DNA of 32,000 bases from Rhodobacter capsulatus SB 1003 (GTDB lineage Bacteria; Pseudomonadota; Alphaproteobacteria; Rhodobacterales; Rhodobacteraceae), in contig NC_014034.1 of the NCBI RefSeq assembly GCF_000021865.1, positions 3,300,001 to 3,332,000 of the forward strand, given 5' to 3'. The notes under the pieces are model-generated. The model searched no databases, was not told where the DNA came from, and saw only the letters and a program-made list of their open reading frames with translations. How positions within the stretch are numbered: position 1 is the stretch's first letter; the number at the start of each line of letters is the position of its first letter. Below, one piece after another: positions 12,441 through 23,174 of the stretch. Made by a program: the position numbers and the translations under genes.

Positions 12441-12579
12441 GGGGGAACTCTTCCGTCTGAGCGTTGCGTTGCGCGGTTTTGCCACAGAAGTCGCAAGGGA
12501 GCAACGGTCGGCGGCAGGCTGCGCCCGGTTTTGCATACCATGGTGCACGGAACAAGCTGCAAAGTCGGCGCAAGACCCC

Positions 12580-12608
12580 TTGCACGGGGCGGCGTGATTG
12601 GGTAGGTG
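12580..12608 (+). promoter_or_regulatory. Putative sigma70-type promoter of tRNA-Cys
   Basis: TTGCAC (12580-12585), a 17-nt spacer, then TAGGTG (12603-12608), about 16 nt upstream of the mature tRNA 5' end. The -10 element is weak. Confidence 0.3.
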
Positions 12609-12624
12609 AGAGGCACCTCACGGC

Positions 12625-12698
12625 GGCGGGTTGGCGGAGAGGTTACGCAGCGGATTGCAAATCCGTGAAGACCGGTTCGATTCCGGTACCCGCCTCCA
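12625..12698 (+). tRNA. tRNA-Cys (anticodon GCA), CCA-encoded
   Basis: Folded by hand, 74 nt. The acceptor stem is GGCGGGT/ACCCGCC with discriminator T and CCA. The D-stem is GCG/CGC. The anticodon stem is GCGGA/TCCGT with loop TTGCAAA (U33, GCA, A37). The T-arm is ACCGG-TTCGATT-CCGGT. Confidence 0.9.
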
Positions 12699-12850
12699 CG
12701 AGCCCCCGCAAAATCCTGACAACAAGCAGTAGTTCGGCGATCCATGTTTTGGCTCGCCATGCAGCCCGTCATTCCGTCTGCGCTTGGTTGCGAGAGATCG
12801 CAGCGCATCGCGGGGAAAGACTCACCCTGCGCAGCTGAGCTGGGCAAGGT

Positions 12851-12935
12851 GCCGTCTCTGTTCCGAGACGGCTTGACGATCCTGGCAGCCTTGCTTGCAG
12901 CAAGGCTTGAAGGGTGGCTTGAAAGCACCCTTCAA
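12851..12935. other. Cluster of three consecutive perfect stem-loops (candidate terminator cluster or small structured RNA)
   Basis: The hairpins are GCCGTCTC-tgttcc-GAGACGGC (12851-12872), GCCTTGCT-tgc-AGCAAGGC (12888-12906) and TTGAAGGGTG-gcttgaaag-CACCCTTCAA (12907-12935). None has a following U-tract. Confidence 0.4.
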
Positions 12936-13092
12936 GGCCCTCCGAGACGTTCACGGCGCCGCCCGCATTCCGGTGATCAGGGGGCCGCGAACATCAACAG
13001 CGCCTCGGCCAGATCAAGCGCGTCGTCGGGCCAGCAGGGGGCCGGGCGCGGATGGGCGACATCGGGCGCCGCAACCGCACGGCAGCCGAGAA

Positions 13093-13872
13093 TCATCCCC
13101 TGCCAGCGCGCAGGAAGGGCGGACCACCGATGCAGCCCGCAAAGCCGCCCCGGCCATGCACGACCGGCGCCCCGTTCGCCTGCACCAGCACGCCGCCCGC
13201 CCCGATCAGCGCCGCATGGCCCGCGGCGATGTCGTAACTGTCGAGCCCTTGGGTCAAACTGATTGCCGCGTCGACCTCGCCCACCGCGGTCAGCGCCAGC
13301 CGATAGGCAATCGAGGGGAGCGCCCGCAGCGCGGCGGGGGCGAAGCGGGCATGGTTGGCAGCGGCGAAATCGCCCGCCTGTTCGTTCAGCGCAAGGACGG
13401 TCGCGGCATCATGGCGACGCGGGGCGAGCGGCCCGACCGGCTGGCCGTTGCGTGTGAGGCGCCGCCCCTCGGCCCAAGCGATCACGTCGCCCGCATCCGC
13501 GCGCGCAGTCGGCGCATGGATCACCCCAAGCACCGGCTGCCCATGGCGCAAAAGCGCCACCGAAACCGCCGACCCCCGATGGCCGCGCAGAAAGGCCGAG
13601 GTGCCGTCCTGCGGATCGACCGCCCAGACGTCGGGATGGCCGCTCGCTTCGCGCGGCAGTTCCTCGCCGCGCCAGTCGCAGCGATGCAGCGCCAGCAACT
13701 GCGCTTTCAGAAATGCCTCGATCTCGGCATCGATTGCGGCATGGCTGCCCTGCCCCCGCGGCCCGCCGGGGCGGTGAAACTCGGTCCAGAGCATCGCCCC
13801 GGCCTGATGTACCGCGGCCAGCACGTCTTCGAGCAGATCGGCGGGGTCGGGCAGGTGGAAATCTCGGGTCAT
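13093..13872 (-). CDS. Inositol monophosphatase / CysQ-family phosphatase
   Basis: 259 aa from ATG 13872, with an AAGGAG SD. IMPase motifs are WAVDPQDGTSAFLRG and SYDIAAGHALI. The ORF-track N-terminal extension to 14409 overlaps the divergent gene and is rejected. Confidence 0.8.
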   Translation of the reverse strand: MTRDFHLPDPADLLEDVLAAVHQAGAMLWTEFHRPGGPRGQGSHAAIDAEIEAFLKAQLLALHRCDWRGEELPREASGHPDVWAVDPQDGTSAFLRGHRGSAVSVALLRHGQPVLGVIHAPTARADAGDVIAWAEGRRLTRNGQPVGPLAPRRHDAATVLALNEQAGDFAAANHARFAPAALRALPSIAYRLALTAVGEVDAAISLTQGLDSYDIAAGHAALIGAGGVLVQANGAPVVHGRGGFAGCIGGPPFLRAGRG

Positions 13873-13959
13873 CGCTGATATCTCCTTTGCTGATGGCCCT
13901 TTGTGCCAGCCAACCCGGCCCCGCCGGGGCTTTGTCGGAAAATTCCGCGTCGAGGTCTC

Positions 13960-14583
13960 ATGGACAGCCCCCTGCGCATCATCGGTTTTTACTGGACGCT
14001 TCCCGTGCCCTGGCGGGGCTTCACCCGCCTGCCCGGGGGCATCGACGAAGCCGCCGCCGCCAGCCGCTCGATCCGCTATCAGCGCGAACGGGTTTGGCGC
14101 TGGGCAAAGGACGAGGGCGGGCAGGTGGTGGCCGAGGAGGCCTTTCTGGAAACCCGCGCGGATCGCGGCACCAGCGCCATCCTGCCCGAGGTCGAACGGC
14201 TTCTGGCAAAGGCCGAGGCAATGGGCGCCACCCTGGCCGTGGTCAATTTCGCCGAGAGCTTTCACTGGCGCCCGCATGCAAGCCTTTGGGGCCGCTTGCA
14301 GGCCGCGCCGCGGGTGATGGCGCTTGACCCGGTGCCGGTGCTGATCGACGGGCAGATCTTCGACCCGGTGACGCATTTCCGCGCCTGGGGCGAGATGGCC
14401 GCGGCCCATACCGCGCTCAAACCCAAAGCCAAGGCCGAGATGGCCGCGCGCATCCGCAGGATGAAGGACACCGGCGCGAGTTACGCCGAGATTGCGAAAG
14501 CGCTGAATGCCGAAGGCGTCACCACGCCCGGCGGCAAGCCCTGGCGGGCGGACAACCTGCGCAAGCTGCTGGCGGCGCTTTGA
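13960..14583 (+). CDS. Small serine-recombinase (resolvase)-like protein with C-terminal HTH, apparently lacking the catalytic Ser motif
   Basis: 207 aa. GAGG SD lies 4 nt before ATG 13960, and codons are strongly GC3. The C-terminus GASYAEIAKALNAEGVTTPGGKPWRADNLRKLL resembles the resolvase/recombinase HTH. The N-terminal beta1 reads LRIIGFYWTLPVPW where resolvases have (I/V)GY-x-R-V-S. The fold assignment is by pattern only. Confidence 0.5.
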   Translation: MDSPLRIIGFYWTLPVPWRGFTRLPGGIDEAAAASRSIRYQRERVWRWAKDEGGQVVAEEAFLETRADRGTSAILPEVERLLAKAEAMGATLAVVNFAESFHWRPHASLWGRLQAAPRVMALDPVPVLIDGQIFDPVTHFRAWGEMAAAHTALKPKAKAEMAARIRRMKDTGASYAEIAKALNAEGVTTPGGKPWRADNLRKLLAAL

Positions 14584-15655: not shown

Positions 15656-17311
15656 ATGGCTTCCTATCAATATGTCTACCACATGGATGGCGTCTCCAAG
15701 ACCTATCCCGGTGGCAAGAAATGCTTCGAGAACATCCGCCTGAACTTCCTTCCGGGCGTCAAGATCGGGGTCGTCGGCGTCAACGGCGCCGGGAAATCGA
15801 CGCTGTTGCGCATCATGGCGGGCATCGACAAGGATTTTCAGGGCGAGGCCTGGGCCGCCAAGGGCGCCAAGGTCGGCTATCTCTCGCAGGAGCCGCAGCT
15901 GGATGAAACGCTGTCGGTGCGCGAAAACGTCATGCTGGGCGTGGCGGAAAAGACCGCCAAGATCGCGCGCTACAATGACCTGGCGATGAACTATTCCGAC
16001 GAGACCGCCGAGGAAATGGCGCGTCTGCAAGACGAGATCGACGCCGAGAACCTCTGGGATCTCGACAGCCAGGTCGATATCGCGCTCGAAGCGCTGCGCT
16101 GCCCGCCCGATGACGCCAATGTCGCGACGCTGTCGGGCGGCGAACGCCGCCGGGTGGCGTTGTGCAAGCTGCTTCTGGAAGCGCCCGACATGCTGCTCTT
16201 GGACGAACCGACCAACCACCTTGACGCCGAGACCATCGCCTGGCTGCAAAAGCACCTGATCGACTACAAGGGCACGATCCTTTGCGTCACCCACGACCGC
16301 TATTTCCTCGATGACATCACCTCGTGGATCCTGGAACTCGAGCGCGGCCGCGGCATCCCCTATGAGGGGAACTATTCCAGCTGGCTGGAACAAAAGGCCA
16401 AGCGGCTCGAACAAGAGGCGCGCGAGGACAAGGCCAAGCAGAAGGTCATGGAAAAAGAGCTGGAATGGATCCGCGCCGGCGCCAAGGCCCGGCAGGCGAA
16501 ATCCAAGGCCCGGATCGCGGCTTACGACAAGATGGCCGAGGAAGGCGTCAAGGAACGGGTCGGCAAGGCGCAGATCATCATTCCGAACGGGCCGCGTCTC
16601 GGCGGCAAGGTGATCGAGGTCGAAGGCCTGAAGAAGCACATGGGCGACAAGCTTCTGATCGAGAACCTCAGCTTCTCGCTGCCGCCGGGCGGCATCCTTG
16701 GGGTGATCGGCCCGAACGGCGCCGGGAAATCGACGCTGATCAAGATGCTGGTCGGCGCCGAGGCCCCGGACGAGGGCACGATCACGCTGGGCGACACGGT
16801 GAAGCTGGCCTATGTCGATCAGTCGCGCGACGCGCTCGATGCGAACAAGAACGTCTGGGAGGAAATCTCGGGCGGGGCGGAACTGATCGAACTGGGAGAT
16901 GCGCAGGTGAACTCGCGCGCCTATTGCGGTGCCTTCAACTTCAAGGGCGCGGATCAGCAGAAGAAAGTGGGCCTGCTCTCGGGCGGGGAACGCAACCGCG
17001 TGCACATGGCGAAACTGCTGAAATCGGGCGGCAACGTGCTGCTGCTTGACGAACCGACGAACGATCTGGACGTGGAGACCCTGCAGGCGCTGGAAGCGGC
17101 GATCGAGGATTTCGCGGGCTGCGCGGTGATCATCTCGCACGACCGCTTCTTCCTGGACCGTCTGTGCACGCATATCCTGGCGTTTGAGGGCGACGCCCAT
17201 GTGGAATTCTTCGAGGGCAACTTCGAGGATTACGAAAACGACAAGATCCGCCGTCTGGGCCCGGATGCGGTCGAGCCGAAGCGGGTGAAATACAAGAAGT
17301 TCACCCGCTGA
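15656..17311 (+). CDS. ettA: Energy-dependent translational throttle protein EttA (ABC-F ATPase)
   Basis: The N-terminus MASYQYVYHMDGVSKTYPGGKKCFENIRLNFLPGVKIGVVGVNGAGKSTLLRIMAGIDKDFQGEA is close to E. coli EttA. It has two ABC cassettes (LSGGERRRVALC, LSGGERNRVHMA) and no TM domain. Confidence 0.92.
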   Translation: MASYQYVYHMDGVSKTYPGGKKCFENIRLNFLPGVKIGVVGVNGAGKSTLLRIMAGIDKDFQGEAWAAKGAKVGYLSQEPQLDETLSVRENVMLGVAEKTAKIARYNDLAMNYSDETAEEMARLQDEIDAENLWDLDSQVDIALEALRCPPDDANVATLSGGERRRVALCKLLLEAPDMLLLDEPTNHLDAETIAWLQKHLIDYKGTILCVTHDRYFLDDITSWILELERGRGIPYEGNYSSWLEQKAKRLEQEAREDKAKQKVMEKELEWIRAGAKARQAKSKARIAAYDKMAEEGVKERVGKAQIIIPNGPRLGGKVIEVEGLKKHMGDKLLIENLSFSLPPGGILGVIGPNGAGKSTLIKMLVGAEAPDEGTITLGDTVKLAYVDQSRDALDANKNVWEEISGGAELIELGDAQVNSRAYCGAFNFKGADQQKKVGLLSGGERNRVHMAKLLKSGGNVLLLDEPTNDLDVETLQALEAAIEDFAGCAVIISHDRFFLDRLCTHILAFEGDAHVEFFEGNFEDYENDKIRRLGPDAVEPKRVKYKKFTR

Positions 17312-17333
17312 CACCTGCGCGCAAGTTGACGGG

Positions 17334-17370
17334 AAGCCGCGAGGGGAGACCTTCGCGGCTTTTTCGTTTT
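17334..17370 (+). terminator. Rho-independent terminator of ettA
   Basis: Stem AAGCCGCGA / TCGCGGCTT with a ~10-nt loop, followed by TTTTCGTTTT. It begins 23 nt after the ettA stop. Confidence 0.6.
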
Positions 17371-17664
17371 CCGATCGGGAAACGAGTCAGGTCTGCCCTG
17401 CGCAACGTGACCGTGGCCAAGGCCATCGCCGAGGCCCAGCGTGACAGATGCCCTACGACCGCCGGGGGTCCAAAGTGGCCTTCGGTGGCCATCTGTGAAT
17501 ATGATGATGAGAGCCAACAGATTAGCGGAACGCTTCTGCAGAGAAAATATGTGCATGCGAGGCGTGCAAATGCCAACGCGTAAGCAAACGACGCCCTATT
17601 AAATTTTCTCAACACAAGGGAATCATTTTCCAGAAAAGAGCACATTTCAACTTAAGTTAATAAA

Positions 17665-17680
17665 GGTATAAATTTATACC
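17665..17680. promoter_or_regulatory. Perfect 16-bp AT-rich palindrome GGTATAAATTTATACC (candidate operator)
   Basis: I verified it is its own reverse complement. It lies ~35 bp upstream of the putative -35 of the FRG gene, in the most AT-rich line of the window (15 G/C in 60 nt at 17641-17700). Confidence 0.35.
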
Positions 17681-17713
17681 TCAAAGCAATAACGAATACA
17701 CCTCACCTCAGAC

Positions 17714-17742
17714 TTGAAGCAACCCCGATTGCATGTTATTTT
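17714..17742 (+). promoter_or_regulatory. Putative sigma70-type promoter of the FRG-domain gene
   Basis: TTGAAG (17714-17719), a 17-nt spacer, then TATTTT (17737-17742). The predicted TSS is near 17750, which would exclude the ORF-track ATG at 17733 and favour ATG 17769. Confidence 0.35.
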
Positions 17743-17768
17743 TTTGCCGTTCTAATCTGGTTGAGAAA

Positions 17769-18632
17769 ATGGCAAAAATTTCTTCCCCTTGCGAAATCGG
17801 CAGCGTAACGGATCTTCTTGAAATTGTGTTCGGCGAGAAAAAAAGTGCTGCATCAACTCGTTGCTTTCGCGGACAAAAGAACGCATCTTGGCCCGTCAAG
17901 CCGAGTGTCAGCAGAAAGAAAGCGAGCGACGCTGAGTCGAAAATGTTTTCTGAAATTGCGCTTGATGCCCCCGGCGATTTCGCCAGCGACAAAACGATGT
18001 TTGAGAAGCTTGTGCGGGCGCAGCATTATGAGTTGCCAACCAGGCTTCTTGATGTCTCCCTGAACCCGCTCGTCGCGCTGTTCTTCGCGTCAGAGGCGCA
18101 TGTCGAAGATGACAAAGAACACGATGGTGCGATACATCTCTACGATGTTCAGGCTGCCAGAACGAAACATGCGGACAGCGACACGTTGAGTTTGATCTGC
18201 AATTTGGCAAGACTGACGGATGACGAAAAGAGCACATTGAAAGCCGCGTCGAAAGATTGCAGTTCGGAAGAGGCCATAGATAGTTTTCGCAACCTGCCAG
18301 CTTGCAAACGACTTTGTCAGTTCGTGAAGATGGAAAAACCGTACTTTGAAAATTCAGTTCAACCCATCGATTTGCGAAAATATTACCTGGCACGTCCGTA
18401 CAGAAACAACAAACGTATCATCGCGCAGTCTGGCGCCTTTATTGCCTCCGGTCTTCTGGAATATCAAGCCCTTGAAACATCAAGCCTCTCAGATCGCTAT
18501 AAGAAGATTTTGGTGAGAGCGGGGGATAAGTCGAAAATACGCGCAGACCTTGACAAGCTCGGAATTAATGGCGGGAGTTTGTTCCCGGAGATCGTCTCTG
18601 CCGCCAAGAATATTAATGCGAGATATGACTAA
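17769..18632 (+). CDS. FRG-domain protein (PF08867-like), function unknown
   Basis: 287 aa. It has F33-R34-G35-Q36 followed by SWPVKPS, then AQHYELPTRLLDVSLNPLVALFFA (res 84-107), DGAIHLYD, NNKRIIAQSGAFI (213-225) and C-terminal GINGGSLFPEI. These are the FRG family hallmarks as I remember them. Hand-counted lines inside the gene are about 42-53% GC, and codons are A/T-ending, unlike the flanks. The alternative start is 17733. Confidence 0.75.
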   Translation: MAKISSPCEIGSVTDLLEIVFGEKKSAASTRCFRGQKNASWPVKPSVSRKKASDAESKMFSEIALDAPGDFASDKTMFEKLVRAQHYELPTRLLDVSLNPLVALFFASEAHVEDDKEHDGAIHLYDVQAARTKHADSDTLSLICNLARLTDDEKSTLKAASKDCSSEEAIDSFRNLPACKRLCQFVKMEKPYFENSVQPIDLRKYYLARPYRNNKRIIAQSGAFIASGLLEYQALETSSLSDRYKKILVRAGDKSKIRADLDKLGINGGSLFPEIVSAAKNINARYD

Positions 18633-18723
18633 ACATTTTCGCAGATAGATTTCCGGCGAAAGTTAGTTCCATCAGCAAACGAAGGGGCCGCTTCGCAACG
18701 CAGCAGTAGCTGCCCCCTCAGGC

Positions 18724-18788
18724 GTGCTAGGACGTTCGACGCTCAGATCGATCCCCGAAACGATTGCCCCCCCCAAGGGCGGGGTCGC
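18724..18788. repeat. GC-rich intergenic repeat, copy 1 (65 nt)
   Basis: GTGCTAGGACGTTCGACGCTCAGATCGATCCCCGAAACGATTGCCCCCCCCAAGGGCGGGGTCGC. By hand alignment it matches copy 2 at about 56 of 67 columns. Confidence 0.8.
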
Positions 18789-18831
18789 TTGCGCTTCGGG
18801 CGTTCGGGGCTCGCCCCTAGCCCTCGCAAGT

Positions 18832-18898
18832 GTGCTCGGGCGTTCGACGCTCGAATCGTTCCACTGGAACGATTTGACCCCGCCAAGGGCGGGGTCGC
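18832..18898. repeat. GC-rich intergenic repeat, copy 2 (67 nt) with two perfect internal hairpins
   Basis: GTGCTCGGGCGTTCGACGCTCGAATCGTTCCACTGGAACGATTTGACCCCGCCAAGGGCGGGGTCGC. The internal hairpins are ATCGTTCC-act-GGAACGAT and GACCCCGCC-aag-GGCGGGGTC. It ends 3 nt before the lepA stop codon. Confidence 0.8.
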
Positions 18899-18901
18899 AT
18901 C

Positions 18902-20701
<1,800 letters not shown>

Positions 20702-22481: not shown

Positions 22482-23174
22482 ATGGCCAGAATCGTGATTC
22501 TCACAGGTGCGGGAGTTTCCGCCGAAAGCGGCATCCGCACCTTCCGCGCCAGCGACGGCCTGTGGGAGGAACACCGGATCGAGGATGTGGCAACGCCCGA
22601 AGGCTTTGCCCGCGATCCGGCCCTTGTGCACAGGTTCTACAACCAGCGCCGCGCGGCGGCCGCGGCGGCCCTGCCCAATGCCGCCCATCTGGCCCTGGCG
22701 CGACTTGAAGCCGCAGGGGCTCATCAGCTGCTGGTGGTGACACAAAATGTCGACGACCTGCACGAACGGGCGGGGACGCAAAACCTGATTCACATGCATG
22801 GCACGCTGGCGGGGGCGCTGTGCGCCGCCTGCGGCCATCGCTGGCCCGCGCCTGCCGAAATGGCACCGCAAGACAGCTGCCCGCGCTGCCTGCATCCCGC
22901 GACGCGGCCCGACATCGTCTGGTTCGGCGAGATGCCCTACCGGATGGAGGAGATCTGGGCGGCGCTGCGGGCGGCCGATCTTTTCGTTTCGATCGGCACC
23001 TCGGGGAATGTCTATCCGGCCGCCGGCTTCGTTGCCGATGCCCGCCATGGGGGCGTGGCGACGCTCGAGCTGAACCTCGAGCCCTCGCAGGGGACGCGGT
23101 TCTTCGACGAGGCCCGGCACGGCCCGGCAACACAGGTGGTTCCGGCCTGGGTGGATGAGATGCTTTGCACATGA
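22482..23174 (+). CDS. cobB: NAD-dependent protein deacylase, Sir2 family (CobB)
   Basis: The start MARIVILTGAGVSAESGIRTFR carries the Sir2 NAD-binding motif. Other motifs are QNVDDLHERAG, the Zn ribbon CAACG...CPRC, and GTSGNVYPAA. The ORF-track upstream extension overlaps the PTP gene and is rejected. Confidence 0.85.
   Translation: MARIVILTGAGVSAESGIRTFRASDGLWEEHRIEDVATPEGFARDPALVHRFYNQRRAAAAAALPNAAHLALARLEAAGAHQLLVVTQNVDDLHERAGTQNLIHMHGTLAGALCAACGHRWPAPAEMAPQDSCPRCLHPATRPDIVWFGEMPYRMEEIWAALRAADLFVSIGTSGNVYPAAGFVADARHGGVATLELNLEPSQGTRFFDEARHGPATQVVPAWVDEMLCT

Follow-up and report, generated by a model that had tools for sequence, protein, structure and literature searches.

A foreign single-gene islet beside lepA in Rhodobacter capsulatus as a probable defence-type cargo of a variable hotspot

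What is a solitary AT-rich gene doing between ettA and lepA, two translation-factor genes, on the chromosome of Rhodobacter capsulatus? The question is raised by a stretch of 32,000 nucleotides from strain SB 1003 (contig NC_014034.1, positions 3,300,001 to 3,332,000; hereafter the window, in whose own numbering all positions are given), where a low-GC islet holds a gene for a protein with an FRG domain. An initial annotation, made from the letters alone, had described this gene as an orphan of recent horizontal origin and had suggested a standalone role in conflict. As analyzed here, the islet is probably a foreign single-gene cargo of defence type lodged in a variable hotspot. It would be a one-gene cassette that was acquired horizontally and sits where strains of R. 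capsulatus exchange cargo, at the 3' end of lepA; its product would most likely be a stand-alone FRG protein of the PDC-S15 type serving as a self-contained anti-phage effector, by abortive infection or exclusion. The family is already catalogued, as PDC-S15 or Frg, and the R. capsulatus copy is a further member of it; what is new is that the 3' end of lepA forms a small hotspot free of integrase, that FRG genes were captured there more than once and that the protein has a hypervariable helical patch.

The islet, its gene and the FRG family

The islet (1236 bp, GC 0.469) is the lone low-GC stretch of the window. Windows of this length in the remainder of the 32 kb have a mean GC of 0.675 (standard deviation 0.024, minimum 0.612), which puts the islet at z = -8.5, and 500-bp windows with a GC below 0.58 can be found in the islet only. 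The G+C content at third codon positions (GC3) is 0.535 in the FRG gene versus 0.78-0.86 in seven neighbouring genes. Codons ending in A or T, which the initial annotation had called the majority, are indeed commoner than in the neighbours (46% versus 14-22%) but stay below half. The hand counts of G+C in 60-nt lines that accompanied it (15/60, 25/60, 32/60 and 38/60) are all reproduced exactly on recount, and the limits then proposed, 17497-18720, lie close to those given by strain comparison, in which the left edge of the cargo falls at 17475/17476 and common sequence resumes at about 18813.

A single plausible gene, 17769-18632, is present in the islet, as had been proposed, with a product of 287 amino acids from ATG 17769. 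The motifs picked out by eye are positioned exactly, namely FRGQ at residues 33-36, AQHYELPTRLLD at 84-95, NNKRIIAQSGAF at 213-224 and LFPEI at 271-275. The hidden Markov model (HMM) search that had been recommended bears out the membership of the FRG family, Pfam PF08867 matching residues 32-114 with 69.6 bits against a gathering cutoff of 25 (E = 4.3e-19). The PADLOC model PDLC04936, which stands for PDC-S15, matches residues 1-286 of the 287 over profile positions 15-296 of 300 (E = 3.6e-100); the protein is matched by 14 PADLOC models, all of PDC-S15 and none of another system, and searches of NCBIfam and of PDB sequences with it gave no match. PDC systems are 145 candidates embedded in BREX, DISARM and type I restriction-modification (RM) loci (bioRxiv 10.1101/2024.01.29.577857). 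The islet gene is like PDC-S15 (Payne et al.) in its full-length HMM match, its single-gene architecture and its foreign mobile context, whereas it differs from these embedded systems in standing alone between two translation-factor genes. Regarding Pfam FRG, the motifs FRG, QHY..PTR..D and AQSG are all present, but while the Pfam model is confined to residues 32-114, the whole 287 amino acids are conserved here, helical insert and C-terminal helices included.

The same protein is known from R. capsulatus SB 1003 as ADE86846.1 / D5AR41, and also as WP_157834371.1; in the SB 1003 annotation it begins at an upstream ATG and counts 299 amino acids. A start at ATG 17733 is not supported, because only ATG 17769 is common to both alleles of the gene and homologs align from residues 1-10.

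Several lines of evidence indicate that the protein is maintained. In an alignment of 117 family sequences, R34, G35, P45, R49, E56, H86, P90, T91, D95, S137 and D138 are invariant, as are N145, K190, Y205, N214, R216, Q220, S221, G222, F224 and K254; the islet protein keeps all 34 family-invariant residues, and the motifs FRG, QHY..PTR..D and AQSG do not vary. An AlphaFold2 (AF2) model is confident (mean predicted local distance difference test, pLDDT, 89.8; predicted template modelling score, pTM, 0.87) and shows a core of mixed alpha/beta type into which a helical stretch, at about residues 138-203, is inserted. Between the window allele and the divergent allele of another R. capsulatus haplotype (L018), the ratio of nonsynonymous to synonymous divergence (dN/dS) over 286 codons is 0.11 at a dS of 0.29, and the FRG protein is therefore maintained by selection. 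Half of the allele substitutions (8 of 16) fall within residues 152-172, inside the helical insert, where the family consensus is undefined, and this patch is a candidate specificity surface or sensor. That the gene is instead a functionless hitchhiker, the decaying remnant of an insertion, is barely credible: a related copy in another bacterium (L158, see below) is frameshifted and neither a canonical promoter nor a terminator was detected by consensus scan, but the low dN/dS of alleles so far apart, the intact reading frame on 62 contigs carrying the identical protein annotated in R. capsulatus, the family-invariant residues and the confident fold prediction all speak against decay.

The FRG protein would be expressed from the AT-rich sequence preceding its gene, and it is purifying selection that keeps it intact. 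Of the promoter-like region proposed earlier, what stands is a weak conserved block (TTGAAG at 17714-17719, a 17-nt spacer and TG-n-TATTTT at 17734-17742, matching 8 of 12 consensus positions), while consensus scans of the islet for promoters and terminators gave no match above shuffled expectation. The block at 17714-17742 can thus be taken as a candidate promoter lying below the calling level of the scan, with a predicted transcription start near 17749. Divergence between the alleles amounts to 7-32% in the upstream non-coding part, where a few blocks are conserved, and to about 5-9% in the coding sequence.

The label of orphan did not survive a profile search, in which 21,410 clusters at 50% identity were found at E <= 1e-3, and 1,604 of them at E <= 1e-30. 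Most members are stand-alone proteins of about 290 amino acids; a second form, of about 430-490 amino acids, is extended at the N-terminus by a part that matches nothing in Pfam. The closest relatives outside the Rhodobacter-like group belong to Rhizobium, Burkholderia and Pseudomonas, at about 50% identity. In metagenomes, a single-protein query matched nothing and the loci were retrieved with a profile query; 35 of 36 of these loci have an FRG gene richer in A+T than its flanks (mean difference -0.106, Wilcoxon p = 6e-11). In 20 of the 117 aligned members, a sub-threshold Pfam match to Phage_DsbA, a T4 double-stranded DNA-binding regulator of late transcription, can be found at residues of about 47-89 (about 17907-18035 in the window; best E = 4.9e-4, 20 bits against a cutoff of 25). 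As it lies inside FRG helices and below the gathering score, it is probably spurious.

An exchange junction at the 3' end of lepA

By exact-protein look-up, at least five different cargos can be found at this junction among R. capsulatus strains with identical LepA, and EttA is likewise identical across strains differing in cargo. Window-type strains harbor the 287-residue FRG protein (FRG-287), and haplotype L018 the divergent FRG allele. In L019 (= L013), a 286-residue low-GC (0.45) TIR-like protein is encoded between ettA and cutA, together with CutA; L016 has CutA with a small membrane protein; and in L020 a gene for a 289-residue BRCT protein lies between ettA and lepA on the opposite strand. 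The 286-residue protein matches a PADLOC TIR effector at 9.4e-10 and, weakly, nucleoside 2-deoxyribosyltransferase, whereas the 289-residue one has a C-terminal BRCT domain and matches PDC-S48 at 7e-7. PADLOC matches among the junction cargos are accordingly those of FRG (PDC-S15), the TIR-like protein and the BRCT/PDC-S48-like protein, one cargo being without a match. In addition to these cargos, cutA itself varies: the L016 and L019 haplotypes have it between ettA and lepA, haplotypes with FRG or BRCT cargo lack it at the junction, and of 80 related species scanned up to 6 kb downstream of ettA only R. maris has it next to that gene.

The breakpoints are sharp. In L020, homology to the window runs as far as 17475, whereas in L016 and L019 it already breaks off at the stop codon of ettA (17309-17312); in all three alike it resumes at about 18813. 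The segment 17312-17475, in which the ettA terminator hairpin (17334-17361) is followed by a T-run, is common to the L018 and L020 haplotypes and is replaced in L016 and L019. On the other side, the GC-rich repeats reported after the gene do exist, but they are backbone beside lepA in every haplotype and do not belong to the islet. Their unit of about 80-110 nt is strongly folded (fold z = -3.0), is present in all five haplotypes in copy numbers that vary by strain, and has no further copy within the window, which identifies them as a backbone feature that resembles repetitive extragenic palindromic (REP) elements and marks the right limit of cargo exchange; neither the islet nor the repeats matched an RNA family in Rfam. 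They hold a perfect 9-bp hairpin, GACCCCGCC-AAG-GGCGGGGTC. The imperfect hairpin at 18681-18719 claimed earlier is likewise present, although it is marginal (fold z = -1.9) and lacks a U-tract.

The comparison of relatives proposed in the initial annotation was expected to yield an empty site. Exact look-ups of EttA and LepA gave alternative cargos only and no empty junction; the junction is thus always occupied, which argues for a replacement hotspot and not for a simple insertion. Nor is the junction a piece of conserved backbone, as had been stated, since in none of 80 related species does lepA lie within 6 kb of ettA. In the same ettA-anchored scan, no FRG gene was found within 6 kb downstream of ettA. 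The adjacency of ettA and lepA is, as read from these sequences, specific to R. capsulatus, and given its absence from the 80 species an ancestral empty site is not obtainable from a scan anchored on ettA.

Regarding the means of exchange, the earlier statement that the element is without integrase, transposase or partner gene is confirmed for the interval from ettA to lepA, and no direct repeats bracket 17476-18711. Site-specific integration, or an island mobilized by an integrase, was rejected on these two grounds. The same two absences, together with the sharp homology breakpoints, suggest that homologous recombination exchanges the cargo by way of the flanks, ettA on one side and lepA with its repeats on the other; what weighs against this inference is that divergence near the junction rises only modestly. 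The gene transfer agent of R. capsulatus (RcGTA) packages about 4 kb. Speculatively, packaging of this size would fit a cargo of 1.2-1.6 kb with its flanks. A small hotspot of this kind, free of integrase, is relevant to the movement of defence genes that have no mobility genes of their own. It is comparable to the gpA-gpQ hotspot of P2 and to that of P4 (PMC9122126) in having fixed flanks with many alternative small cargos, some of them known or candidate defence genes, and the P2 hotspot itself contains an FRG homolog. Unlike these phage loci, the lepA junction is chromosomal, lies between housekeeping genes, holds one or two genes only, is bounded by a REP-like repeat and has no integrase, and it is specific to the R. 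capsulatus lineage.

How long the FRG gene has been at this place is a separate matter. The initial reading of a recent horizontal acquisition holds as regards foreign composition and the accessory, strain-variable nature of the gene, but 'recent' is not borne out: the FRG alleles have a dS of 0.29 whereas ettA and lepA of the same strains have a dS of 0.077-0.078, a difference that may, against an old origin, partly reflect weaker constraint on codon usage in the islet and not age. Since FRG genes are AT-richer than their flanks almost throughout the loci sampled, low GC is a trait of the family and not a clock.

Two further FRG genes can be found beside lepA. On a Rhodobacter-like contig (L108), where LepA is 91.6% identical to that of the window and the other flank differs, the stop codon of an FRG gene (57.5% identical, GC3 0.38) lies 19 bp from the lepA stop; the window and L108 FRG proteins are each other's closest relatives. 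On L158 (region 1-1769), a Rhodobacter-like metagenomic contig with a LepA 94% identical, a distance of 116 bp separates the lepA stop from a frameshifted FRG gene of a different subclade, 57% identical to P0191. As lepA is found near none of the remaining FRG loci (about 90), its 3' flank is a lineage-specific landing site that has received FRG more than once. Upstream of FRG on L158, an open reading frame (ORF; 33-365) has motifs that, on its sequence, resemble a REP-associated tyrosine transposase. Another metagenomic contig (L135) encodes, at 537-1883, a GTP_EFTU-domain protein of about 449 amino acids that is 28% identical to the G domain of LepA; it lies about 1.7 kb upstream of an unrelated FRG homolog.

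In all, three FRG alleles from two subclades are linked tail to tail with lepA in Rhodobacter-like bacteria. One could read this linkage as functional, with an enzyme resembling ADP-ribosyltransferases (ARTs) that would target, or be triggered by, the translation apparatus (a translational GTPase or a stalled ribosome), and with the lepA flank as an integrase-free, possibly RcGTA-sized exchange site that would preferably keep single-gene effectors of the NAD+/ADP-ribose type (FRG, TIR-like); such a reading is highly improbable. Hardly better placed is the view that FRG is an accessory or housekeeping gene free of conflict, resident beside lepA since before the species split, its low GC reflecting selection or tuning of expression. 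It draws on the adjacency in three related organisms, on the mutual closeness of the window and L108 proteins and on the two old alleles within R. capsulatus, but it is very unlikely when strains with identical LepA carry unrelated cargo in place of FRG, when the L158 copy comes from another subclade and is frameshifted, when FRG has a GC3 of 0.38-0.53 in genomes with a GC3 of about 0.85-0.9, and when its nearest outside relatives, only about half identical, sit in Rhizobium, Burkholderia and Pseudomonas within a family rich in plasmid and phage copies. Purifying selection combined with strain variability argues against both this ancient resident and the hitchhiker considered above.

Contexts of homologs and putative mode of action

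The tabulation of homolog neighbourhoods that had been proposed was carried out, and the defence, prophage and plasmid contexts that it found fit a defence role. In an Enterobacter lambdoid prophage, FRG is an opposite-strand moron between the antiterminator Q and holin genes. In Peduovirus P2_2H1 it lies beyond gpA at the cos-proximal end, within the gpA-to-cos region known as the old/tin defence hotspot of P2 (Rousset et al., PMC9122126). A Pseudomonas island combines FRG with Mrr, SIR2_2, an OLD-like ATPase, a NotI RM system and an integrase; in Burkholderia, FRG adjoins an nSTAND1 NTPase, HicB and an integrase; and in Hoeflea and another genome it is found in islands with a resolvase or integrase. 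FRG also occurs in 303 plasmid records, 208 of them conjugative. Over 31 FRG loci, recurrent neighbours are antiterminator Q (three times), nSTAND1 (three times) and KwaB (twice), and PADLOC models matched by the 150 neighbours number 420 versus 52 for 150 neighbours of ettA; the former matches include type I RM (methylase and specificity subunits), Kiwa, PARIS AriA, mads and Nsn. The neighbouring ORFs were called with a home-made caller relying on a GC3-GC2 rule, validated on known gene calls, and the control set was called identically. Because models and not proteins are counted, and because the control set is all high in GC, this enrichment is supportive only.

The repeated company of RM genes can be explained otherwise, namely by FRG being a factor between mobile elements or an accessory of RM (a modulator or back-up of type I RM or BREX, or an anti-restriction or anti-defence protein), of which the R. 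capsulatus copy would be a stranded passenger. One family member from the representative search, P0172 (868 amino acids), is a natural fusion of HARE-HTH, HsdM_N, an N6-adenine DNA methylase (N6_Mtase) and FRG which, judged on its sequence, physically ties the FRG domain to a type I/IIG-like RM module. With PDC systems having been defined inside BREX, DISARM or type I RM loci, with type I methylase and specificity subunits among the neighbours and with many copies on conjugative plasmids and temperate phages, this explanation has several points in its favor. It is nonetheless unlikely: the majority of the family stands alone, the copies of R. capsulatus, L108 and Pseudomonas P0095 have no RM genes beside them, selection is purifying even in a solitary context, and the positions as a prophage moron and in the P2 hotspot are typical of exclusion genes that protect a lysogen.

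A defence role for the FRG gene, predicted from these contexts, therefore seems rather probable. In the mechanism proposed, the FRG protein would be inactive until infection; the variable helical insert (about 138-203, hypervariable at 152-172) would sense a phage cue; and the conserved core, with R34-G35, H86, D95, S137-D138, Y205, N214, R216 and Q220-S221-G222, would consume NAD+ or transfer ADP-ribose and thereby halt phage replication. This last step is drawn from the literature. The Aravind group counts Frg among the domains of the ART superfamily and sees in it a potential NADase effector against viruses (PMC9503650), the Frg clade having been proposed by Burroughs and Aravind (cited in PMC9503650). 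An NAD+- or ART-type chemistry, adopted here as the likeliest for FRG, is tentative as a published prediction and, with odds below even, clearly more doubtful than the defence role itself.

The structural comparison recommended in the initial annotation gave a confident model and no significant Foldseek match in either the PDB or BFVD. Four distinct ART proteins (NatT, CARDS toxin, pierisin-1 and EcPltA) can be found among about 28 sub-threshold PDB matches, an over-representation in weak matches to a predicted model that is suggestive. Several observations, set together, weigh against the chemistry or against the defence role. The best Foldseek match in the PDB, the RES toxin NatT at ranks 1-2, has an E of only 0.34 and a template modelling (TM) score of 0.22-0.24; the structure search of BFVD gave nothing significant; a profile search of the PDB with the FRG family gave no match; and a Pfam match to ART, RES or DarT was found in 0 of 117 members, even at E <= 10. 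The catalytic Glu canonical in R-S-E/H-Y-E ARTs is missing at the Q-S-G position of FRG. The R. capsulatus gene and those of one Pseudomonas lineage are solitary, with housekeeping genes around them and no other defence gene in the vicinity, the neighbour comparison has the weaknesses of counting and control already mentioned, and no experiment on any FRG protein was found in the literature searched, as the initial annotation had supposed in saying that the family has no experimentally assigned function. PDC systems are moreover classed as untested candidates by the PADLOC authors (bioRxiv 10.1101/2024.01.29.577857). As to the profile searches, the published unification of Frg with ARTs used more sensitive methods than those applied here.

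The likeness to RES proteins also raises the question of a toxin. FRG could be a toxin-like selfish or addiction gene, or an effector of stress-activated growth arrest of the RES type, unrelated to phages, and this is quite unlikely. NatT as the top, non-significant structural match, the grouping of Frg with RES in the ART superfamily (PMC9503650) and the location of a foreign gene at a variable locus are in keeping with it. Against it, the islet has no antitoxin-like small ORF, its upstream part is non-coding and poorly conserved, no RES signal is given by Pfam, addiction is not enforceable by a lone toxin, and the contexts of homologs are rich in phage and defence genes and do not resemble those of toxin-antitoxin systems. 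In the same way, FRG shares with the RES toxins (Xre-RES / MbcT / NatT) a proposed superfamily and NAD+ chemistry (PMC9503650), but has neither similarity at the level of sequence profiles nor a cognate antitoxin gene, and its TM score is low; an antitoxin of the Xre-RES type was sought as a conserved small ORF in the islet and not found, the 293 nt upstream of the gene diverging by the 7-32% given above.

The anti-phage reading finds an analogy in TIR and SIR2 effectors (DSR, Thoeris), which FRG may parallel as a likely self-contained sensor and NAD+-targeting effector acting by abortive infection, and in another strain the junction itself holds a TIR-like protein. FRG is however of a different fold and family from these effectors, and its own activity is putative. 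What is at stake is a large family spread across phages, plasmids and defence islands and flagged as immune effectors by two independent computational studies. R. capsulatus SB 1003, a model strain amenable to genetics, carries the gene as a clean single-gene cassette, and its sister strains provide natural allelic-replacement controls in the form of a second FRG allele, a TIR-like protein and a BRCT protein, so that defence by PDC-S15, the chemistry of FRG and the specificity of the patch are all directly testable.

Features of the locus and its surroundings

The features of the junction are gathered in Table 1.

Table 1. Coordinates of the FRG islet and of its flanks in the window, with the evidence for each feature.
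Feature	Position	Strand	Evidence
ettA (ABC-F translation factor), left conserved flank	15656-17311	+	Pfam ABC_tran (two) and ABC_tran_Xtn
GC-rich backbone segment, including the ettA terminator hairpin	17312-17475		Homology breakpoints; inverted repeat I6
Low-GC cargo module (islet proper)	17476-18711		GC 0.469; left edge from L020, right edge at the first backbone repeat copy
AT-rich non-coding upstream region	17476-17768	+	Weak promoter-like block kept in both alleles
FRG-domain gene, 287 aa	17769-18632	+	Pfam PF08867, PADLOC PDC-S15, dN/dS, AF2 model
Hypervariable patch, codons 152-172 in the helical insert	18222-18284	+	Allele substitutions, family consensus, AF2 helices
Imperfect GC-rich hairpin past the FRG stop	18681-18719	+	Fold z = -1.9; not called as a terminator; no U-tract
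Two tandem REP-like GC-rich repeats abutting the lepA stop	18712-18901		Repeat families D1 and D3
lepA (EF4), right conserved flank	18902-20701	-	Pfam GTP_EFTU and LepA_C

Beyond these features, a few observations concern the surroundings of the junction. Downstream of lepA, a SIR2-family gene at about 22482-23174 has native GC and is syntenic in L108 (10809-11486, 67.6% identical); it looks like a housekeeping deacetylase of the CobB type and not like a defence SIR2. On the other side, a tRNA-Cys gene (12625-12698) is followed about 1.2 kb downstream by an ORF of 207/226 amino acids (13903-14583) with a weak match to Recombinase (PF07508), conserved in all R. capsulatus haplotypes, and this region about 3 kb left of ettA could be the remnant of an integrated element. 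An inositol-monophosphatase-family gene on the minus strand (about 13093-14409) encodes 259 amino acids in window-type strains, whereas in L016, L018 and L020 (about 12512-13800) it is called as a 598-residue fusion with an ADP-ribosylglycohydrolase (PF03747), a second strain-variable feature near the hotspot that is again linked to ADP-ribose.

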